Sequence record: NC_031114.1
Strand: one strand, 5' to 3'
DNA length: 39,235 nucleotides
Origin: Escherichia phage 64795_ec1
Shown here: in pieces, positions 5,953-35,675 of the stretch
How positions within the stretch are numbered: position 1 is the stretch's first letter
Layout of the letters: each line of letters starts with the position of its first letter
Notes under the pieces: generated by a model
Databases searched by the model: none
Seen by the model: only the letters and a program-made list of their open reading frames with translations
Told to the model about the DNA's origin: nothing
Made by a program: the position numbers and the translations under genes

Positions 5953-6369
5953 ATGAACGACATAGAACGATTCAACGCAAAGACTGAACCATGCGGAGAA
6001 TGTATTCGTTGGACTGGTCGAATCCAGCCTAACGGGTACGGTCAGTTACGATTAAACGGTAAAACACAGTATGCACACAGAGCAGCTTACACACTGTTCA
6101 ATGGAGAAATACCAGAAGGATACGTGGTTATGCACTCCTGCGATAACAGATGGTGTGTAAACCCAAGGCACCTAACTTTAGGAACACAATCTGATAACCT
6201 CATTGACATGACCAGAAAAGGTAGGCACAGTAAGACCGTAATACCAAACGATCACATAGAGGGAATCAGGAATGATACCCGATCTTCCTACGTAATAGCT
6301 AGGGAGTGGGGAGTGAATCCATCAACTATCCAAAAGATTAAATCTGGAAAGAATAGGAGATTTGTATGA
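5953..6369 (+). CDS. free-standing HNH homing-type endonuclease
   Basis: 138 aa; motif HSCDNRWCVNPRHLTLGTQSDNLIDM (H-x-C-D-N-x-x-C-x-N-P-x-H-L…N) and a helix-turn-helix-like C-terminus (VIAREWGVNPSTIQKIKSGK). Confidence 0.85.
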   Translation: MNDIERFNAKTEPCGECIRWTGRIQPNGYGQLRLNGKTQYAHRAAYTLFNGEIPEGYVVMHSCDNRWCVNPRHLTLGTQSDNLIDMTRKGRHSKTVIPNDHIEGIRNDTRSSYVIAREWGVNPSTIQKIKSGKNRRFV

Positions 6370-21148: not shown

Positions 21149-22072
21149 ATGGCTGAATCTAATGCAGACGTATATGCATCTTTTGGCGTGAACTCCGCTG
21201 TGATGTCTGGTGGTTCCGTTGAGGAACATGAGCAGAACATGCTGGCTCTTGATGTTGCTGCCCGTGATGGCGATGATGCAATCGAGTTAGCGTCCGACGA
21301 AGCGGAAACAGAACGTGACCTGTATGACAACTCTGACCCATTCGGTCAAGAAGATGATGAGGGGCGCATTCAGGTTCGTATTGGTGATGGCTCTGAGCCG
21401 ACCGATGTGGACACTGGAGAAGAAGGCTTTGAGGGCACCGAAGGTTCCGAAGAGTTTACCCCACTGGGTGAGACTCCAGAAGAACTGGTAGCTGCCTCTG
21501 AGCAACTTGGCGAGCACGAAGAAGGCTTCCAAGAGATGATTAACATTGCTGCCGAGCGTGGCATGAGTGTCGAGACCATTGAGGCTATCCAGCGTGAGTA
21601 CGAGGAGAACGAAGAGTTGTCCGCTGAGTCCTACGCTAAGCTGGCTGAAATTGGCTACACGAAGGCGTTCATTGACTCATATATCCGTGGTCAAGAAGCT
21701 CTGGTGGAGCAGTACGTAAACAGTGTCATTGAGTACGCTGGTGGTCGTGAACGCTTTGACGCACTGTATAATCACCTTGAGACGCACAACCCTGAGGCTG
21801 CACAGTCGCTTGACAATGCGTTGACCAATCGTGACTTAGCGACCGTTAAGGCTATCATCAACTTGGCTGGTGAGTCTCGCGCTAAGGCGTTCGGTCGTAA
21901 GCCAACTCGTAGTGTGACTAATCGTGCTATTCCGGCTAAACCTCAGGCTACTAAGCGTGAAGGCTTTGCGGACCGTAGCGAGATGATTAAAGCTATGAGC
22001 GACCCTCGGTATCGCACAGATGCCAACTATCGTCGTCAAGTCGAACAGAAAGTAATCGATTCGAACTTCTGA
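21149..22072 (+). CDS. 9: capsid assembly scaffolding protein (gene 9)
   Basis: 307 aa acidic protein MAESNADVYASFGVNSAVMSGGSVEEHEQNMLALDVAARDGDDAIELASDEAE…. Confidence 0.97.
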   Translation: MAESNADVYASFGVNSAVMSGGSVEEHEQNMLALDVAARDGDDAIELASDEAETERDLYDNSDPFGQEDDEGRIQVRIGDGSEPTDVDTGEEGFEGTEGSEEFTPLGETPEELVAASEQLGEHEEGFQEMINIAAERGMSVETIEAIQREYEENEELSAESYAKLAEIGYTKAFIDSYIRGQEALVEQYVNSVIEYAGGRERFDALYNHLETHNPEAAQSLDNALTNRDLATVKAIINLAGESRAKAFGRKPTRSVTNRAIPAKPQATKREGFADRSEMIKAMSDPRYRTDANYRRQVEQKVIDSNF

Positions 22073-22085
22073 TAGACTCTGAAAT

Positions 22086-22108
22086 TAATACGACTCACTA
22101 TAGGGAGA
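22086..22108 (+). promoter_or_regulatory. T7-RNAP promoter phi10
   Basis: TAATACGACTCACTATAGGGAGACCACAACGGTTTCCCTCTAGAAAT, +1 at 22103; strong SD AAGGAG before gene 10. Confidence 0.9.
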
Positions 22109-22170
22109 CCACAACGGTTTCCCTCTAGAAATCATTCTTTGTTTAACTTTCTTAAGAAGGAGACATACAT

Positions 22171-23205
22171 ATGGCTAACATGACTGGTGGACAGCAACTG
22201 GGTACTAACCAAGGTAAAGGCGTAAGCGGTGGTGCCGATAAACTGGCGTTGTTCTTGAAGGTATTTGGTGGTGAAGTTCTGACTGCATTCGCTCGTACCT
22301 CCGTGACCACTTCTCGCCACATGGTCCGTTCCATCTCCAGCGGTAAATCTGCTCAGTTCCCTGTTCTGGGTCGCACTCAGGCAGCGTATCTGGCTCCGGG
22401 TGAGAACCTCGACGATAAACGTAAAGACATCAAACACACCGAGAAGGTAATCACCATTGATGGTCTCCTGACGGCTGACGTTCTGATTTACGATATTGAG
22501 GACGCGATGAACCACTATGACGTTCGCTCTGAGTACACCTCTCAGTTGGGTGAATCTCTGGCGATGGCTGCTGATGGTGCGGTTCTGGCTGAGATTGCCG
22601 GTCTGTGTAACTTGGTAGGGACCTCTAACGAGAACATTGAGGGCCTAGGTGCTGCTACCGTAATTGAGACCACTCAGGCCAAGACTGCACTTACCGACCA
22701 AGTTGCTCTGGGTAAAGAGATTATTGCGGCTCTGACTAAAGCTCGTGCGGCTCTGACCAAGAACTATGTTCCGGCTGCTGACCGAGTGTTCTACTGCGAC
22801 CCTGACAGCTACTCTGCGATTCTGGCAGCACTGATGCCGAACGCTGCAAACTACGCTGCTCTGATTGACCCTGAGAAGGGTTCTATCCGCAACGTTATGG
22901 GCTTTGAGGTTGTAGAAGTTCCGCACCTCACCGCTGGTGGCGCTGGTACTGCCCGTGATGGCGTAACTGGTCAGAAGCACACCTTCCCTGCCACTAAGAG
23001 TGGTAATGACAAGGTAGCTAAGGACAACGTTATCGGCCTGTTCATGCACCGCTCTGCGGTAGGTACCGTTAAGCTGCGCGACTTGGCTCTGGAGCGCGCT
23101 CGCCGTGCTAACTTCCAAGCTGACCAGATTATCGCTAAGTACGCAATGGGTCACGGTGGTCTGCGCCCAGAAGCTGCTGGTGCAGTGGTTTTCAAGGGGG
23201 AGTAA
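22171..23205 (+). CDS. 10A: major capsid protein 10A
   Basis: 344 aa MANMTGGQQLGTNQGKGVSGGADKLALFLKVFGGEVLTAFARTSVTTSRH…. Confidence 0.98.
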   Translation: MANMTGGQQLGTNQGKGVSGGADKLALFLKVFGGEVLTAFARTSVTTSRHMVRSISSGKSAQFPVLGRTQAAYLAPGENLDDKRKDIKHTEKVITIDGLLTADVLIYDIEDAMNHYDVRSEYTSQLGESLAMAADGAVLAEIAGLCNLVGTSNENIEGLGAATVIETTQAKTALTDQVALGKEIIAALTKARAALTKNYVPAADRVFYCDPDSYSAILAALMPNAANYAALIDPEKGSIRNVMGFEVVEVPHLTAGGAGTARDGVTGQKHTFPATKSGNDKVAKDNVIGLFMHRSAVGTVKLRDLALERARRANFQADQIIAKYAMGHGGLRPEAAGAVVFKGE

Positions 23206-23342
23206 TGCTAAGGGTGGCCTCAACGGTCGCTGCTAGTCCCGAAGAGGCGAGTGTTACTTCAACAGAAGAAACCTTAACGCCAGCACAGAAGGCCGCACGC
23301 ACCCGCGCTGCTAACAAACCAGCTGCTGCCGCTGAGCAATAA
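22171..23342 (+). CDS. 10B: minor capsid protein 10B by -1 ribosomal frameshift near 23188-23194
   Basis: slippery G GTT TTC; -1 frame then reads QGGVMLRVASTVAASPEEASVTSTEETLTPAQKAARTRAANKPAAAAEQ to TAA 23340-23342. Confidence 0.7.
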
Positions 23343-23349
23343 CTAGCAT

Positions 23350-23390
23350 AACCCCTTGGGGCCTCTAAACGGGTCTTGAGGGGTTTTTTG
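23350..23390 (+). terminator. T7-RNAP terminator Tphi
   Basis: AACCCCTTGGGGCCTCTAAACGGGTCTTGAGGGGTTTTTTG hairpin plus U-run. Confidence 0.9.
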
Positions 23391-23407
23391 CTTAAAGGAG
23401 GAACTAT

Positions 23408-23998
23408 ATGCGCTCATACGATATGAACGTTGAGACTGCCGCTGAGTTATCCGCTGTTAACGACATTCTGGCATCTATCGGTGAACCTCCGGTATCAACT
23501 CTGGAAGGTGATGCTAACGCGGATGTAGCGAACGCTCGGCGTATTCTCAACAAGATTAACCGACAGATTCAGTCTCGTGGCTGGACGTTCAACATTGAGG
23601 AAGGCATAACGCTATTACCCGATGTTTACTCCAACCTGATTGTATACAGTGACGATTATCTGTCCCTAATGGCTACTTCCGGTCAATCCATCTACGTGAA
23701 CCGAGGTGGCTACGTCTATGACCGAACGAGTCAATCAGACCGCTTTGAGTCCGGTATTACCGTGAACATTATTCGTCTCCGAGACTACGATGAGATGCCT
23801 GAGTGCTTCCGTTACTGGATTGTCACCAAGGCTTCCCGTCAGTTCAATAACCGATTCTTTGGGGCACCGGAAGTAGAGGGTGTACTCCAAGAAGAGGAAG
23901 ATGAGGCTAGACGTCTCTGTATGGAGTACGAGGTGGACTACGGTGGGTACAATATGCTGGATGGTGACGCGTTCACTTCTGGTCTACTGACTCGCTAA
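23408..23998 (+). CDS. 11: tail tubular protein A (gene 11)
   Basis: 196 aa [66 protein letters not shown]…. Confidence 0.97.
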
Positions 23999-24018: not shown

Positions 24019-26406
24019 ATGGCACTCATTAGCCAATCAATCAAGAACTTGAAGGGTGGTATCAGCCAACAGCCTGACATCCTTCGTTATCCCGACCAAG
24101 GGTCACGCCAAGTTAACGGTTGGTCTTCGGAGACCGAGGGCCTCCAAAAGCGTCCACCTCTGGTTTTCCTTAAGACCCTAGGAGGTAGTGGCGACTTAGG
24201 ACCAGCGCCTTACATCCATCTGATTAACCGTGATGAGAACGAACAGTATTACGCTGTGTTCACTGGTACAGGAATCCGTGTGTTTGACCTTGCTGGTAAC
24301 GAGAAGCAGGTTCGTTACCCAACCGATGGCGCTGCATATATACAGACAGCAAACCCTCGGAATGACCTGAGGATGGTCACAGTAGCTGACTACACCTTCA
24401 TCGTCAACAGGAATGTCCGTGTAGGTAAGAATACCAACTCGGTCAACCTTGCAGGGTTTAACCCTAAGAAAGACGCTTTAATTAATGTCCGTGGCGGTCA
24501 GTATGGTAGAACACTCCAGATTCAGATTAATGGAGGCACTCAGGCAAGCTATCAGATTCCAGATGGGTCACAGCCAGCGCATGTAAACAATACGGACGCT
24601 CAGTGGTTAGCTGAGGAACTGGCTAGACAACTAAGGGCTAACACTCCCGGATGGACATTCAACGTGGGCCAAGGCTTTATCCACATCATAGCAGATGCTG
24701 CTGGTGAGATTAACTCCTTGGTAACTAAGGATGGTTACGCGGACCAGTTGATTAACCCTGTAACCCACTACGCCCAATCATTCGCCAAGTTACCGCCAAA
24801 CGCGCCTGATGGATACATGGTTAAAATCGTTGGGGATGCCTCGAAGTCTGCTGACCAATATTACGTTCGCTATGACGCACAGCGTAAGGTCTGGGTTGAG
24901 ACATTAGGTTGGAACGTTACTAACCAACTTCTGTACGGGACTATGCCTCACGCCCTTGTGCGTGCTGCTGATGGTAACTTTGAGTTCAAGTGGATTGAGT
25001 GGAACCCGAAAACCTGTGGTGACGATGATACTAACCCTTGGCCCTCCTTCGTGGACTCCACAATCAACGATGTGTTCTTCTTCCGTAACCGTTTAGGTTT
25101 CCTCAGTGGAGAGAATATAATCTTGAGTAGAACCGCTAAGTACTTCAACTTCTACCCAGCGTCAATCGCAAACTTGAGCGACGATGACCCTATCGACGTA
25201 GCTGTGAGTACCAACCGAATCGCAATCCTTAAGTACGCCGTTCCGTTCTCGGAGGAGTTACTCATATGGTCCGACGAAGCACAGTTCGTCCTGACTGCAT
25301 CCGGCACCCTCACGTCGAAATCGGTAGAGTTGAACCTAACGACCCAGTTTGATGTACAGGACCGAGCGAGACCTTATGGTATTGGGCGCAATGTCTACTT
25401 CGCTAGTCCGAGGTCCAGCTTCACGTCAATACACAGGTACTACGCTGTGCAGGATGTAAGTTCCGTTAAGAACGCTGAGGACATTACAGCACACGTGCCT
25501 AACTACATCCCTAATGGTGTGTTCAGTATTTGCGGTAGTGGTACGGAAAACTTCTGTTCGGTACTATCTCACGGGGACCCTAGCAAAATCTTCATGTACA
25601 AATTCCTGTACCTGAACGAAGAGCTAAGGCAACAGTCGTGGTCTCATTGGGACTTTGGGGAAAACGTGCAGGTTCTAGCTTGCCAGAGTATCAACTCAGA
25701 TATGTATGTTATTCTCCGTAATGAGTTCAATACGTTCCTAGCTAAAATCTCTTTCACTAAGAACGCCATTGACTTACGAGGCGAACCCTATCGTGCCTTT
25801 ATGGACATGAAGATTCGCTACACGATTCCTAGCGGAACATACAACGATGATACCTATACTACCTCTATTCACCTGCCAACAATCTATGGTGCAAACTTCG
25901 GGAGGGGCAAAATCACTGTACTGGAACCTGACGGTAAGATAACTGTCTTTGAGCAACCTACGGCTGGGTGGCAAAGCGACCCATGGCTGAGGCTCAACGG
26001 TAACTTAGAGGGACGCACGGTGTACATTGGGTTCAACATTAACTTCATCTATGAGTTCTCTAAGTTTCTCATCAAGCAGACTGCCGACGACGGGTCTACC
26101 TCCACGGAAGACATTGGTCGCTTGCAGTTACGCCGAGCGTGGGTGAACTACGAGGATTCTGGTACGTTCGATATTTATGTTGAGAACCAATCGTCTAACT
26201 GGAAGTACACAATGGCAGGTTCTCGATTAGGCTCTAACGCTCTGAGGGCTGGGCGATTGAACTTAGGGACCGGACAATACCGATTCCCTGTAGTTGGCAA
26301 CGCCAAGTTCAATACTGTATACATCTCGTCAGATGAGACTACCCCATTGAACATCATTGGGTGTGGCTGGGAAGGTAACTACTTACGGAGAAGTTCCGGT
26401 ATTTAA
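24019..26406 (+). CDS. 12: tail tubular protein B (gene 12)
   Basis: 795 aa MALISQSIKNLKGGISQQPDILRYPDQGSRQVNGWSSETEGLQKRPP…. Confidence 0.97.
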   Translation: MALISQSIKNLKGGISQQPDILRYPDQGSRQVNGWSSETEGLQKRPPLVFLKTLGGSGDLGPAPYIHLINRDENEQYYAVFTGTGIRVFDLAGNEKQVRYPTDGAAYIQTANPRNDLRMVTVADYTFIVNRNVRVGKNTNSVNLAGFNPKKDALINVRGGQYGRTLQIQINGGTQASYQIPDGSQPAHVNNTDAQWLAEELARQLRANTPGWTFNVGQGFIHIIADAAGEINSLVTKDGYADQLINPVTHYAQSFAKLPPNAPDGYMVKIVGDASKSADQYYVRYDAQRKVWVETLGWNVTNQLLYGTMPHALVRAADGNFEFKWIEWNPKTCGDDDTNPWPSFVDSTINDVFFFRNRLGFLSGENIILSRTAKYFNFYPASIANLSDDDPIDVAVSTNRIAILKYAVPFSEELLIWSDEAQFVLTASGTLTSKSVELNLTTQFDVQDRARPYGIGRNVYFASPRSSFTSIHRYYAVQDVSSVKNAEDITAHVPNYIPNGVFSICGSGTENFCSVLSHGDPSKIFMYKFLYLNEELRQQSWSHWDFGENVQVLACQSINSDMYVILRNEFNTFLAKISFTKNAIDLRGEPYRAFMDMKIRYTIPSGTYNDDTYTTSIHLPTIYGANFGRGKITVLEPDGKITVFEQPTAGWQSDPWLRLNGNLEGRTVYIGFNINFIYEFSKFLIKQTADDGSTSTEDIGRLQLRRAWVNYEDSGTFDIYVENQSSNWKYTMAGSRLGSNALRAGRLNLGTGQYRFPVVGNAKFNTVYISSDETTPLNIIGCGWEGNYLRRSSGI

Positions 26407-29774: not shown

Positions 29775-32700
29775 ATGGATAAGTACGATAAGAACGTACC
29801 AAGTGATTATGATGGTCTGTTCCAAAAGGCGGCTGATGCCAACGGGGTCTCGTATGACCTTTTACGTAAAGTCGCTTGGACGGAATCACGCTTTGTACCT
29901 ACAGCAAAATCTAAGACTGGACCATTAGGCATGATGCAGTTCACCAAGGCAACCGCTAAGGCACTTGGTCTGCGAGTTACCGATGGTCCAGATGATGACC
30001 GACTAAACCCTGAGTTGGCTATCAATGCTGCCGCCAAGCACCTTGCAGGTCTGGTAGGGAAGTTTGATGGCGATGAACTCAAAGCTGCCCTTGCATACAA
30101 CCAAGGCGAGGGACGCTTGGGTAATCCTCAACTTGAGGCGTACTCTAAGGGAGACTTCGCGTCCATCTCTGAGGAAGGACGGAACTACATGCGTAACCTT
30201 CTGGATGTTGCTAAGTCACCTATGGCTGGACAGTTAGAAACTTTTGGAGGTATCACCCCAAAGGGTAAAGGCATTCCGGCTGACGTTGGACTAGCTGGAA
30301 TAGACCATAGTCAGAAAGTAACACAGGAACTTCCTGAGTCCACAAGTTTTGACGTTAAAGGTATCGAACAGGAGGCTCCGGCGAAACCATTCGCCAAGGA
30401 CTTTTGGGAGACCCACGGAGAAACACTTGATGAGTACAACAGTCGTTCAACCTTCTTCGGATTCAAAAATGCTGCCGAAGCTGAACTCTCCAACTCAGTC
30501 GCTGGGATGGCTTTCCGTGCTGGTCGCCTCGATAATGGTTTTGATGTGTTTAAAGACACCATTACGCCGACTCGCTGGAACTCTCACATCTGGACTCCAG
30601 AAGAGTTAGAGAAGATTCGAACTGAGGTTAAGAACCCTGCGTATATCAACGTGGTAACTGGTGGTTCTCCTGAGAATCTTGACGACCTCATTAAGCTGGC
30701 TAACGAGAACTTTGAGAATGACTCACTCGCTGCCGAAGCTGGCCTCGGTGCTAAACTGAGTGCTGGCATTATTGGCGCTGGTGTGGACCCTCTTAGTTAT
30801 GTTCCCATGGTTGGTGTAACTGGTAAGGGCTTTAAGTTAATCAATAAGGCTCTTGTGGTTGGTGCAGAAAGTGCTGCGCTGAACGTTGCATCCGAAGGTC
30901 TCCGCACATCCGTAGCTGGTGGCGATGCAGATTATGCTGGTGCTGCCTTAGGTGGCTTTGTGTTTGGCGCTGGTATGTCTGCAATCAGTGATGCTGTAGC
31001 TGCTGGTCTGAAACGTAGTAAACCAGAAGCTGAGTTCGACAATGAGTTCATTGGTCCCATGATGCGGATGGAAGCCCGTGAGACAGCGCGTAACGCCAAC
31101 TCTGCGGACCTCTCTCGGATGAACACTGAGAACATGAAGTTTGAAGGTGAATACAAAGGCGTTCCATATGAGGAACTTCCGACCGAAAAGGGTGCTGTGG
31201 TTCTCCATGACGGCTCCATACTTAGTGCGAGCAACCCAATCAACCCCAAGACTCTCAAAGAGTTCTCCGAGGTTGACCCTGAGAAAGCGGCACGAGGAAT
31301 CAAACTAGCAGGGTTCACTGAGATAGGGTTAAAGACCTTAGGCTCAGACGACGCTGATATTCGACGGGTAGCTATTGACCTAGTGCGGTCTCCTACCGGA
31401 ATGCAATCAGGTTCCTCAGGGAAGTATGGTTCAACAGCTTCGGACATTTTCGAGAAACTTCGTGGCACTGACCAGCGTACTTACAACGACTTGTATAAGG
31501 CGATGTCTGACGCGATGAAAGACCCTGAGTTCTCCACTGGCGGCGCTAAGATGTCTCGCGAAGAAGCTCGTTACACTATCGAGCGTCGAGTGTCCTTGGC
31601 TATTGAGAACCCTGAGCTACAGAAGGCTTTAACTCCTAACGAGCGAATCGTAATGGACATCGTTAAGCGACATTATGACACCAAGCGTGAACTTATGGAG
31701 AACCCTGCGGTCTTTGGTAACACGAAGGCTGTGAGTATCTTTCCGGAGAGTAGACACAAGGGAACATATGTTCCACATGTGTACGACAAGTACGCTAAGG
31801 CACTCAAAATTCAACAATATGGTGCTGAGGGCTTACAGGAAGGTATCGCTCGGTCATGGATGTGTAGCTACGATTTGAGGCCTGCGGTAAAGGCCCGTAT
31901 TGACGAAGCACTTAAAGAGATGCACGGTGTAGAGGAAGTCACACATGATATGGTGTATAAGTACGCTATGGATAAAGCATACGGTATCTCTCACTCAGAC
32001 AGGTTCACTAATAGCTCCATCATTGAGGAGAACATTGAGGGTCTTGTTGGTATTGAGAATAACTCATTCCTTGAAGCACGAAACCTCTTTGACTCCGACT
32101 TAGCAATCACCATGCCAGATGGTCAGCAATTCTCTGTGAACGATTTGAGGGACTTTAGTATGTTCCGTATCATGCCAGCGTATGACCGCCGTATCAACGG
32201 TGACATAGCCATCATGGGGTCTACCGGTAAAACCACTAAGGAACTTAAGGATGAGATTTTGGCTCTCAAAGCGAAAGCTGAGGGTGACGGTAAGAAGACT
32301 GGCGAGGTTCATGCTCTAATGGATACCGTTAAGATTCTTACTGGTCGTGCTCGACGCAATCAGGACACTGTGTGGGAAACCTCACTGCGTGCCATTAATG
32401 ACCTAGGGTTCTTCGCCAAGAACGCCTATATGGGTGCTCAGAACCTTACGGAGATTGCTGGGATGATTGCCACGGGTAACGTGCGTGCTCTTGGTCACGG
32501 TATCCCAATTCTACGTGATACACTCTACAAGTCTAAACCAGTTTCCGCTAAGGAACTTAAGGAACTCCATGCGTCTCTGTTCGGGAAGGAGGTGGACCAG
32601 TTGATTAGACCTCAACGTGCTGACATAGTGCAGCGTCTAAGGGAAGCAACTGACACAGGGCCTGTTGTGGCGAACATCGTAGGAACCTTAAAGTATTCCA

Positions 32701-33581
32701 CACAGGAACTAGCTGCTCGCTCTCCATGGACTAAGCTGCTTAATGGAACCACTAACTACCTTCTTGATGCTGCGCGTCAAGGTATGCTTGGGGACGTTAT
32801 TAGTTCTACCCTAACAGGTAAGACTACCCGCTGGGAGAAAGAAGGATTCCTTCGTGGTGCCTCCGTAACTCCTGAGCAGATGGCTGGAATCAAGGCTCTC
32901 ATCAAGGAACATATGGTACGTGGTGAGGACGGGAAGTTTACCGTTAAGGATAAGCACGCGTTCTCTATGGACCCTCGTGCTATGGACTTATGGAGACTGG
33001 CTGACAAGGTAGCTGATGAGGCGATGCTGCGTCCACACAAGGTGTCCTTACAGGATTCCCATGCGTTCGGAGCATTAGGTAAGATGGTCATGCAGTTTAA
33101 GTCTTTCACTATCAAGTCCCTTAACTCTAAGTTCCTGCGAACCTTCTACGATGGGTACAAGAACAACCGAGCGATTGACGCTGCGCTGACTGGTATCATA
33201 TCTATGGGTCTCGCTGGTGGCTACTACGCTATGGCTGCACACGTCAAAGCATATGGAATGCCTAAGGAGAAACGTAAAGAGTACTTGGAGCGAGCACTGG
33301 ACCCAACCATGATTGCCCACGCTTCGTTGTCTCGTAGTTCTCAATTGGGTGCTACTTTGGCTATGGCTGACCTAGTTGGTGGCCTGTTCGGGGTTGAGTC
33401 CTCAAAGATGGCCCGCTCTACGATTCTGCCTAAAGACACCATGAGGGAGCGTGACCCTAATAAGCCTTATACCTCGTGGGAGGTAATGGGTAATATGGGT
33501 TCCAACATTCTTGAACAGATGCCATCGGCTGGATTTGTGGCTAACGTTGGGGCTTCCCTACTTAATCTGCTGGCGTGGTGA
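29775..33581 (+). CDS. 16: internal virion protein D with N-terminal lytic transglycosylase domain (gene 16); reading frame ends early at TGA 33579-33581
   Basis: 1268 aa; …GVSYDLLRKVAWTESRFVPTAKSKTGPLGMMQFTKATAKALGL… (transglycosylase motif). Confidence 0.9.
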   Translation: MDKYDKNVPSDYDGLFQKAADANGVSYDLLRKVAWTESRFVPTAKSKTGPLGMMQFTKATAKALGLRVTDGPDDDRLNPELAINAAAKHLAGLVGKFDGDELKAALAYNQGEGRLGNPQLEAYSKGDFASISEEGRNYMRNLLDVAKSPMAGQLETFGGITPKGKGIPADVGLAGIDHSQKVTQELPESTSFDVKGIEQEAPAKPFAKDFWETHGETLDEYNSRSTFFGFKNAAEAELSNSVAGMAFRAGRLDNGFDVFKDTITPTRWNSHIWTPEELEKIRTEVKNPAYINVVTGGSPENLDDLIKLANENFENDSLAAEAGLGAKLSAGIIGAGVDPLSYVPMVGVTGKGFKLINKALVVGAESAALNVASEGLRTSVAGGDADYAGAALGGFVFGAGMSAISDAVAAGLKRSKPEAEFDNEFIGPMMRMEARETARNANSADLSRMNTENMKFEGEYKGVPYEELPTEKGAVVLHDGSILSASNPINPKTLKEFSEVDPEKAARGIKLAGFTEIGLKTLGSDDADIRRVAIDLVRSPTGMQSGSSGKYGSTASDIFEKLRGTDQRTYNDLYKAMSDAMKDPEFSTGGAKMSREEARYTIERRVSLAIENPELQKALTPNERIVMDIVKRHYDTKRELMENPAVFGNTKAVSIFPESRHKGTYVPHVYDKYAKALKIQQYGAEGLQEGIARSWMCSYDLRPAVKARIDEALKEMHGVEEVTHDMVYKYAMDKAYGISHSDRFTNSSIIEENIEGLVGIENNSFLEARNLFDSDLAITMPDGQQFSVNDLRDFSMFRIMPAYDRRINGDIAIMGSTGKTTKELKDEILALKAKAEGDGKKTGEVHALMDTVKILTGRARRNQDTVWETSLRAINDLGFFAKNAYMGAQNLTEIAGMIATGNVRALGHGIPILRDTLYKSKPVSAKELKELHASLFGKEVDQLIRPQRADIVQRLREATDTGPVVANIVGTLKYSTQELAARSPWTKLLNGTTNYLLDAARQGMLGDVISSTLTGKTTRWEKEGFLRGASVTPEQMAGIKALIKEHMVRGEDGKFTVKDKHAFSMDPRAMDLWRLADKVADEAMLRPHKVSLQDSHAFGALGKMVMQFKSFTIKSLNSKFLRTFYDGYKNNRAIDAALTGIISMGLAGGYYAMAAHVKAYGMPKEKRKEYLERALDPTMIAHASLSRSSQLGATLAMADLVGGLFGVESSKMARSTILPKDTMRERDPNKPYTSWEVMGNMGSNILEQMPSAGFVANVGASLLNLLAW

Positions 33582-33730
33582 ATGCTCCCAACAAAGCCAC
33601 TGAGCAGGACTTCATGACTGGCTTGATGAACTCTACCAAGGAGTTAGTACCTAACGACCCTCTTACTCAACAGCTTGTGTTGAAGATTTATGAGGCGAAT
33701 GGTGTTAACTTGAGGGAACGTCGGAAATAA
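33578..33730 (+). other. 16: displaced 3' segment of gene 16 (last 50 codons in the other frame)
   Basis: VNAPNKATEQDFMTGLMNSTKELVPNDPLTQQLVLKIYEANGVNLRERRK, stop TAA 33728-33730 inside phi17; 1268+50 codons equals the T7 gp16 length as I recall it. Confidence 0.6.
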
Positions 33731-33802: not shown

Positions 33803-34675
33803 ATGGCTAACGTAATTAAAACCGTTTTGACTTACCAGTTAGATGGCTCCACTCGTGATTTTAATATCCCGTTTGAGTATCTAGCCCGTAAGTTCGTAGT
33901 GGTAACTCTTATTGGTGTAGACCGCAAGGTCCTTACGATTAATACAGACTACCGTTTTGCTACTCGCACTACTATCTCACTAACCAAGGCTTGGGGTCCA
34001 GCGGATGGATATACTACAATAGAGCTACGTCGAGTAACCTCCACGACCGACCGCTTGGTTGACTTTACGGATGGCTCAATCCTCCGTGCGTATGACCTTA
34101 ACGTCGCTCAGATTCAAACGATGCACGTAGCGGAAGAGGCCCGTGACTTAACTGCGGATACTATCGGTGTCAATAATGATGGTAACTTGGATGCTCGTGG
34201 TCGTCGAATTGTGAACCTAGCGAACGCTGTAGATGACCGTGACGCTGTTCCGTTTGGTCAACTTAAGGCTATGAACCAGAACTCATGGCAGGCGCGTAAT
34301 GAGGCCTTACAGTTCCGTAATGAGGCTGAGACTTTCAGAAATCAAGCGGAGGGCTTTAAGACCGAGTCTGGCACTAACGCTGCTAATACGAAGCAGTGGC
34401 GTGATGAGACCAAAGGTTTCCGAGACGAAGCTGAGCAGTTTAAGAATACTGCTGGTCAATATTCTACATCCGCTGGGAACTCTGCGACCGCAGCACACCA
34501 ATCTGAGGTAAACGCTGAGAACTCCGCAACAGCCTCCGCTAACTCTGCCCAGTCAGCAGAACAGCAAGCAGACCGCGCTAAGGTGGAAGCAGACAAGTTG
34601 GGTAACTGGAATGCACTTGCAGGGGCAATTGATAGTGTTGACGGGAACAATGTCATGTTTAAAGGCGACATTTAG
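33803..34675 (+). CDS. 17: tail fibre protein (gene 17), proximal part: T7-type tail-anchor and coiled-coil shaft
   Basis: 290 aa MANVIKTVLTYQLDGSTRDFNIPFEYLARKFVVVTLIGVDRKVLTINTDYRF…; stops at TAG 34673-34675. Confidence 0.9.
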   Translation: MANVIKTVLTYQLDGSTRDFNIPFEYLARKFVVVTLIGVDRKVLTINTDYRFATRTTISLTKAWGPADGYTTIELRRVTSTTDRLVDFTDGSILRAYDLNVAQIQTMHVAEEARDLTADTIGVNNDGNLDARGRRIVNLANAVDDRDAVPFGQLKAMNQNSWQARNEALQFRNEAETFRNQAEGFKTESGTNAANTKQWRDETKGFRDEAEQFKNTAGQYSTSAGNSATAAHQSEVNAENSATASANSAQSAEQQADRAKVEADKLGNWNALAGAIDSVDGNNVMFKGDI

Positions 34676-35675
34676 AACACCTGCAAATATCGTAGGTGGT
34701 GGCTTAATCTCCAACGGTTCTGGTCATTTTGAGAAAGGCGTGGCTGTTAAGGGTGAATTAGATGTTGTAGGGGATGTTTCGGCGCATAAGGATGTGTGGG
34801 TAGATGGTGTAGTTGTAGCCAATGGTGGGATACAGCAACATTCAAATCCTAATACCCTTAATGAGGTGTGGAGGGTGTTTATTAAGGGGGTCCCACTCCA
34901 TATTGGAAACCGACAAGGTCTTCATCTTGGTTGGAACGAGACCAGTAATGGCGAGTCGTGTTTTGTTACTAACAAAGGTGCAGGTGGTGGTGGTTTTGTT
35001 TTCCGCACGGTAAACTTTGAGAACACTGCTGAGATTGGTCGCGTTACATTCACTGGTAACGGTGGAGTACGCGCCTTCGATTTACAAGCAATTAATGGTG
35101 CTCGTATTGAGGCTGGGAATAATATAGTTGGTGCGAGCATTTTCTCAGGAATGGGCGCCTGCCAGTTCAATACCGAAGGTAACTTGCTGGGAGGTCTATG
35201 GAACAGAGTTGGAGGTGACCTATACAACTACCTGTGGAACAAGAGTCACTTTGCTAAGCCACCTGCTGGGGTTCAATTGTTTACAGGCCGTGGTGGGGAC
35301 TACCTTGAGGGCCTTGTTGATACTACAGCTGTTGGGTTCCGCTGGTTCAATTCTGACAGAAGGCTTAAAGAAAACATAAAGGTTGTACGTTCCGCTGATG
35401 ATATGCTTAAGATTATCCGCTCATACATCCCGGTTTCCTATAAGTATAAGGACTCTGAGTATGTTGATAAGCGTGGCAGAACGGTAAGCGTTACCGGTAA
35501 GAACTCTCGTGCTGGTTTCATTACTCAGGATTTGATTCGAATCTGGCCAGAGGCGGTGGACGTGCTATCCGATGGTATGCAATCCCCAGACCCTAACCAA
35601 ATCATCGGTGGACTCATGCTTCTTGTCAAGAATCTTGATGAACGCGTACAGGAGTTGGAGAAAAATAACGTTTAA
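34674..35675 (+). CDS. 17: tail fibre (gene 17), distal receptor-binding part with C-terminal S74-like intramolecular chaperone, in the other frame
   Basis: RTPANIVGGGLISNGSGHFEKGVAVKGELDVVGD… then …NSDRRLKENIKVVRSADDMLKIIRSYIPVSYKYKD…IIGGLMLLVKNLDERVQELEKNNV; no independent SD, so a continuation of the proximal ORF is assumed. Confidence 0.75.
   Translation, partial: RTPANIVGGGLISNGSGHFEKGVAVKGELDVVGDVSAHKDVWVDGVVVANGGIQQHSNPNTLNEVWRVFIKGVPLHIGNRQGLHLGWNETSNGESCFVTNKGAGGGGFVFRTVNFENTAEIGRVTFTGNGGVRAFDLQAINGARIEAGNNIVGASIFSGMGACQFNTEGNLLGGLWNRVGGDLYNYLWNKSHFAKPPAGVQLFTGRGGDYLEGLVDTTAVGFRWFNSDRRLKENIKVVRSADDMLKIIRSYIPVSYKYKDSEYVDKRGRTVSVTGKNSRAGFITQDLIRIWPEAVDVLSDGMQSPDPNQIIGGLMLLVKNLDERVQELEKNNV

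Follow-up and report, generated by a model that had tools for sequence, protein, structure and literature searches.

10B is an established virion protein of phage T7, and Condron, Atkins and Gesteland are said to have reported, in 1991, a programmed -1 ribosomal frameshift in T7 gene 10A/10B. One review lists T7 gene 10 with a heptamer of the G_GU type and gives the CCCC in the terminator as required for frameshifting (PMC5009743). Elsewhere, frameshifting in T7 gene 10 is put at about 10% (PMC1635266), and 10B is reported to be dispensable for growth of T7 (PMC3276506, PMC11482910, and PMC5592923).

Other T7-like phages end gene 10 in other ways. In the T3 type, the shift site is CCC_AAA_G and the extension has 84-94 residues, which include an Ig-like domain; this extension is unrelated in sequence to the tail described below. 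A second group with long tails (96 residues) has G_GTT_TTC. In phage Vi06 (L029 / L085), the corresponding sequence is G_GTT_TTA_AAG, which includes the overlapping heptamer T_TTA_AAG, and the tail has 48 codons. (T_TTA_AAG is a highly shift-prone motif in E. coli.)

We analysed a stretch of 39,235 nucleotides (the window). In megablast comparisons with GenBank phages, the best matches to both halves of the window were Teseptimavirus genomes. T7 itself matched with 91.5-92.5% identity across 92% of the length, and the top match to the gene 10 region was Escherichia phage NC-A, at 93.6%. T7 proteins are colinear along the window. Together, the megablast matches and the colinear proteins indicate that the window is a T7-group phage genome, from a lineage that is absent from the collections we searched, and not T7 itself. 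The RNA polymerase (the product of gene 1) is 98.2% identical to that of T7.

Other genes show a wide range of similarity to T7: genes 4.3, 5.7, and 6.5 are 100% identical to their T7 counterparts, and genes 1.2, 3.8, and 5.5 have just 31-50% identity. At the sites where T7 has its homing-endonuclease genes 2.8 and 7.7, the window has none; a single homing-endonuclease homologue, 35-41% identical to T7 2.8 and 7.7, lies between genes 1.2 and 1.3 (5953-6369). The genome is mosaic.

The features of the gene 10 region are collected in Table 1. The product of gene 10A matches the Pfam family Gp10A-like (E 1e-111) as well as PDB entry 2xvr and others, and it has a predicted mass of about 36.2 kDa. 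It is 93.6% identical to T7 gp10A at the amino acid level, that is, 6.4% of the residues differ, and exact-protein look-ups did not find this exact sequence elsewhere.

Table 1. Coordinates of the features of the gene 10 cassette and its surroundings within the window.
Feature	Position	Strand	Remarks
phi10, class III T7-RNAP promoter	22086..22108	+	TAATACGACTCACTATAGGGAGA; +1 G at 22103; 23/23 to consensus; aligns to the annotated T7 phi10
Gene 10 Shine-Dalgarno	22157..22162	+	AAGGAG; 8 nt upstream of ATG; counterpart of the T7 s10 leader
Gene 10A, major capsid protein	22171..23205	+	ORF of 344 aa; TAA stop at 23203-23205
Slippery heptamer, proposed -1 shift site	23187..23193	+	G_GTT_TTC at Val340-Phe341; same sequence and position as in T7
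10B-specific -1 frame segment	23193..23342	+	49 sense codons (23193-23339) and TAA (23340-23342); homologous to the T7 10B tail
Conserved tail core	23274..23321	+	LTPAQKAARTRAANK-P; the last position is P in the window alone, A in relatives
Indel junction	23319..23321	+	CCA; relatives have GCC CGA AAG GAA GCT GAG TTG; ACC also lost; net -21 nt
Tphi terminator	23345..23392	+	15-bp stem at 23350-23385 with 6-nt loop; CCCC at 23352-23355; T6 at 23384-23389
Gene 11, tail tubular protein A	23408..23998	+	Downstream neighbour; 98% amino acid identity to T7 gp11

All of the sequence elements of the T7 gene 10 cassette are present in the window. The 3' end of 10A reads GTG (23185-87), GTT (23188-90), TTC (23191-93), AAG, GGG, GAG, and TAA. 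Thus, G_GTT_TTC is in the X_XXY_YYZ register, with exactly three sense codons from TTC to the 10A stop, and T7 gene 10 has the identical heptamer in the same register and at the same distance from its stop. The first codons after the heptamer are AAG GGG in the window and AAA GTG in T7. An alignment with T7, 13a, and NC-A shows conservation of the heptamer, the TAATG context of the stop, the entire terminator, and the greater part of the tail.

In the -1 frame, the first codon after the slip would be CAA (at 23193), and the tail reads QGGVMLRVASTVAASPEEASVTSTEETLTPAQKAARTRAANKPAAAAEQ. The predicted 10B thus has 341 + 49 = 390 amino acids (about 40.8 kDa), versus 398 for T7 10B. The first 42 of the 49 tail residues align to T7 10B, with 3 substitutions, and the tail matches PHROG 12582 (E 3e-19). 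The tail is short and rich in Ala, Glu, and Thr. A Pfam search (E up to 1) found no domain in these 49 residues, and specifically no Ig-like C-terminal extension of about 85-95 residues; among the PDB matches to the capsid protein, no chain contains the tail. The predicted peptide across the 10A/10B junction is AVVFQGGVMLR, and the predicted tail peptides include VASTVAASPEEASVTSTEETLTPAQK.

As in T7, the -1 stop lies directly ahead of Tphi: the hairpin begins after a gap of 7 nt. The hairpin has a predicted energy of -26.4 kcal/mol (z = -4.9 relative to dinucleotide shuffles). Tphi, in T7 a late class I terminator for T7 RNA polymerase, is identical to that of T7 at 48 of 48 positions, from CTAGCATAA to TTTTTTG, which includes the CCCC; the base beyond the U-run context differs (GCTT in the window, GCTG in T7). 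In T7, Tphi likewise lies between genes 10 and 11, and its predicted hairpin is the same. The T7 record gives 10B as a joined coding sequence that ends at the homologous -1 stop and places Tphi at the homologous point: position 24210 of that record corresponds to a termination point at about 23390 in the window. The initial annotation of this DNA had described a slippery run three codons ahead of the 10A stop, a -1 frame that is open for 49 codons up to a TAA directly ahead of Tphi, and an intact Tphi, and our results agree with it on each of these; its end coordinate, 23390, matches the Tphi point of the T7 record.

Given these similarities, the locus is very probably orthologous to the programmed -1 frameshift cassette of T7 gene 10A/10B, together with Tphi, and would operate as it does in T7. 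The phage RNA polymerase would initiate at phi10, and ribosomes would translate 10A from the transcript. At G_GUU_UUC, a minority of the ribosomes would slip by -1, with the tRNA-Phe in the A site moving from UUC to UUU and the tRNA-Val in the P site moving from GUU to GGU. The slipped ribosomes would skip the 10A stop and add 49 residues, which would yield a minor capsid protein, 10B, of 390 amino acids with the tail at its C terminus. Most transcripts would end at Tphi, 7 nt past the -1 stop, and read-through would supply gene 11 and the genes beyond it. The slippage itself, its level of about 10%, and a contribution from the distal CCCC are what we infer from the experiments with T7. The feature is the known textbook T7 system and is ordinary, and the gene 10 cassette opens no new question. 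It does imply that gene 10 should be annotated with a joined 10B coding sequence (22171..23193, 23193..23342) and not with a separate 45-amino-acid "head protein" ORF.

To compare the tail across phages, we used 80 IMG/VR loci that were retrieved with the 10A protein (78-96% amino acid identity). Across these roughly 80 T7-like loci, the -1 frame is open for 38-93 codons beyond the 10A stop, with one exception (16 codons, owing to a premature stop), and the +1 frame is shut after 2-17 codons. Most of the loci have G_GTT_TTC; the alternatives are A/C_GTT_TTC, G_GTT_TTA_AAG (Vi06), G_GTA_AAG, and the T3-type CCC_AAA_G. By length, the tails form a short class (44-58 amino acids) and long classes (84-96 amino acids), and all of the short tails share the core LTP[AQ]QKAA[RI]TRA[AR]NKA. 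Tails that follow G_GTT_TTC were found both in the short class and in the class of 96 amino acids.

The tail peptide is under purifying selection. Among 27 distinct nucleotide versions of the basic, 16-residue core (LTPAQKAARTRAANKA), 6 first, 4 second, and 16 third codon positions are variable (all 16 of the third positions). At the level of codon positions, this is the signature of a translated peptide under purifying selection. Furthermore, in this region, which does not code in the zero frame, the tails of the T7 clade carry indels of 3, 6, 21, or 24 nt, every one a multiple of three.

In one locus, L034 (IMGVR_UViG_2700988866_000001), a TAG interrupts the tail prematurely, after 19 codons and ahead of the core, and the core is still recognisable further on. 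This is consistent with L034 being a natural variant with a truncated 10B and with 10B being dispensable.

The initial annotation had also held that the 10A/10B module was unaffected. Every element that could be checked is present, but the tail is a net 21 nt shorter and has a proline in place of an alanine, and "intact" hides a shortened tail allele. The tail has 49 codons. That of T7 has 56, and of the 17 other T7-clade sequences that we compared, 15 have 55-58. After AAC AAA (Asn-Lys), the relatives continue with GCC CGA AAG GAA GCT GAG TTG GCT GCT GCC ACC GCT GAG CAA, and the window continues with CCA GCT GCT GCC GCT GAG CAA; this in-frame net loss of 21 nt changes ARKEAELAAATAEQ to PAAAAEQ. 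The proline replaces an otherwise invariant alanine, the last residue of the core, and only the window has it among the 27 core versions. Owing to the loss, the terminator is 21 nt nearer to the shift site: the distance from the heptamer to the CCCC is 158 nt in the window, 179 nt in T7, and 140-303 nt among relatives. The deletion also removes a weak predicted hairpin that lies upstream in T7 (AAAGCCCGAAAGG...GGCU).

The closest tail alleles in a collection of 5.8 billion proteins (P0001; contigs L087-L092) are identical to the tail of the window up to the junction and then continue with the long form, so the short form is derived. A single simple deletion between repeats was rejected as its origin, since at least the replacement of 21 nt by CCA and the loss of ACC are required. 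Scans for the exact pattern of the deletion junction in IMG/VR and in JGI metagenomes found no occurrence, blastn against GenBank phages gave no match spanning the junction that was better than 87%, and exact-protein look-ups did not find the window's 45-amino-acid tail ORF elsewhere.

The site of this indel is a recurrent spot of length polymorphism. The Salmonella phages Vi06 and Sal_R1S also have a tail that is shortened past the (N/K)K of the core, by 24 nt where the window has lost 21. Their tails end in AAAAEK or AAATEK, similar to the window; unlike them, the window retains an extra CCA (Pro) codon. Judging from these relatives, the in-frame change of 21 nt lies within natural variation. 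The shortened allele offers one modest observation on which part of the 10B tail can be dispensed with, and another on how freely the distance from the shift site to the distal terminator element can vary.

Some database matches to the tail are of a different kind. The metaclust matches P0020, P0023, P0024, and P0026 start with LEDPEEASVTS... and carry the T7 allele. These entries appear to be translated from the T7 terminator fragment of expression vectors rather than from phage genes. One such entry has a 9-nt deletion (ANKEAEL).

The loss of 21 nt might instead be a further lesion of this genome, which either weakens or abolishes the stimulation of frameshifting or gives 10B a non-functional tail. 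The genome does have other apparent lesions, namely single-base frameshifts in genes 16 and 17, both of which are essential in T7. The short allele with proline is unique to the window in the collections searched, and the closest alleles carry the long form past the junction. Furthermore, PMC5009743 describes T7 frameshifting as relying on a distal 3' element that is poorly understood. On the other hand, the loss preserves the reading frame and spares the most conserved part of the core, and both the heptamer and Tphi are unchanged. Because the spacing of the window from heptamer to CCCC is inside the natural range of its relatives, and because phages of the Vi06 group are 24 nt shorter at the same spot, we consider impairment unlikely. 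Even if it did occur, it would cost little, as 10B is described as dispensable in T7 (PMC3276506 and PMC11482910).

The initial annotation had referred to lesions elsewhere in the genome. In the sequence as it stands, genes 16 and 17 do have such lesions; neither touches gene 10. The gene 10 cassette, including the promoter, the shift site, the tail frame, and the terminator, is untouched by these frameshifts. In the homologue of gene 16 (internal virion protein D; 29775-33727), one base has been lost near 33566 relative to T7 (AAT-CTGCTGG versus AATGCTGCTGG). The ORF stops at 33581, with 1268 amino acids versus 1318, and the last 54 codons are in another frame (33566-33727). The break may be genuine or may reflect an error in the assembly. 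The tail-fibre gene 17 (33803-35675) has gained one base near 34673 relative to Bas102 (ATTTAGAAC versus ATTC-GAAC). The break lies near 34672-34675; the extra base creates a TAG, so that two overlapping ORFs (33803-34675 and 34611-35675) stand in place of a single gene. Bas102, ESh1, and NC-A have one undivided tail-fibre gene at this position. The C-terminal half of gene 17 in the window is unlike T7 gp17.

An idea slightly more doubtful than impairment by the 21-nt loss is that the 10B tail has a natural function that has gone unrecognised, and that the adjacency of the -1 stop and Tphi might join in the long-range stimulation by the CCCC. We raise a function for the tail because the core is selected across T7-like phages of Escherichia, Salmonella, Klebsiella, and Yersinia even though the tail is dispensable in the laboratory. 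If this idea were true, then the allele in the window, with the terminator 21 nt closer, the distal part of the tail gone, and alanine changed to proline, would be a ready-made test case.

Less probable still is independent synthesis of the tail, as an unfused peptide of 45 amino acids that starts at the ATG at 23205, by termination-reinitiation or with AAGGGGGAG as the Shine-Dalgarno sequence. This ATG overlaps the 10A stop (TAATG), a purine-rich run (23194-23202) lies just upstream, and 14 of the 16 aligned T7-clade sequences have the ATG. Also, gene callers do report a separate "head protein" here: there are 26 standalone ORFs of 41-69 amino acids, as well as PHROG 12582 and the annotation of NC-A. 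Gene finders have no model of frameshifting, which accounts for these separate calls. The spacing from GGAG to the ATG is just 2 nt, and unlike the window, Vi06 and Sal_R1S have no ATG that overlaps the 10A stop; they have TAACAC at that point. More broadly, most of the short-tail clades outside the T7 clade have no methionine ahead of the core, which makes an ATG start impossible there, yet the peptide is conserved, and in these clades the -1 frame extends uninterrupted back through the heptamer. Three sources describe the T7 product as the frameshift fusion 10B (PMC5009743, PMC1635266, and PMC3276506).

The window taken by itself says little about whether the -1 frame is meaningful. In a single-sequence test, a 49-codon open frame arose in about 17% of shuffles (P about 0.17), which is not significant, and 10 of the 32 long ORFs of the window have a -1 extension of at least 46 codons, mostly because the next gene occupies that frame. 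There are three copies of GGTTTTC in the window, two of them in register inside an ORF. It is solely the homology and the comparative evidence that set this open frame apart from chance. A coincidental open frame in untranslated sequence 3' of 10A and ahead of Tphi, which the shuffling result and the recurrence of GGTTTTC would allow, is scarcely credible given the 6/4/16 pattern in the core, the tail indels in multiples of three, the fact that almost all relatives have an open -1 frame and a closed +1 frame, and the established presence of T7 10B in virions.

The second in-register G_GTT_TTC of the window, at 24162-24168 within gene 12, is probably due to chance, because the list of ORFs suggests that the neighbouring frame soon closes. 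We also examined synonymous conservation at the heptamer of gene 10. GTT is conserved in 95% of sequences and TTC in 100%, but 14 of the 99 conserved four-fold columns are also at 95% or above; the test is undiscriminating because gene 10 has a strong codon bias.

We then considered RNA structure. An Rfam scan of 22000-23600 (E up to 1) found no family for a frameshift element or for Tphi. The minimum free energy folds of the region from the heptamer to the terminator differ between the window and T7, and a consensus fold of 16 T7-clade sequences with RNAalifold revealed no conserved local structure that would stimulate frameshifting (covariation -0.09, one compensatory pair). The sole consistent structure in that alignment was the invariant Tphi hairpin. 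Pairing of the G-run 3' of the heptamer (AAGGGG) with the CCCCUU of the terminator was rejected as well: the position of the G-run varies, and it is absent from several T7-clade sequences (AAGACGGAG and GCGGCGGAG) and from most other clades.

Finally, across about 75 T7-like loci (L001-L083), with tails of 44-96 codons, the -1 stop is nearly always no more than about 20 nt from the ACCCCTTGGG stem of the terminator. The exceptions are a few T3-like loci (L020, L021, and L024).
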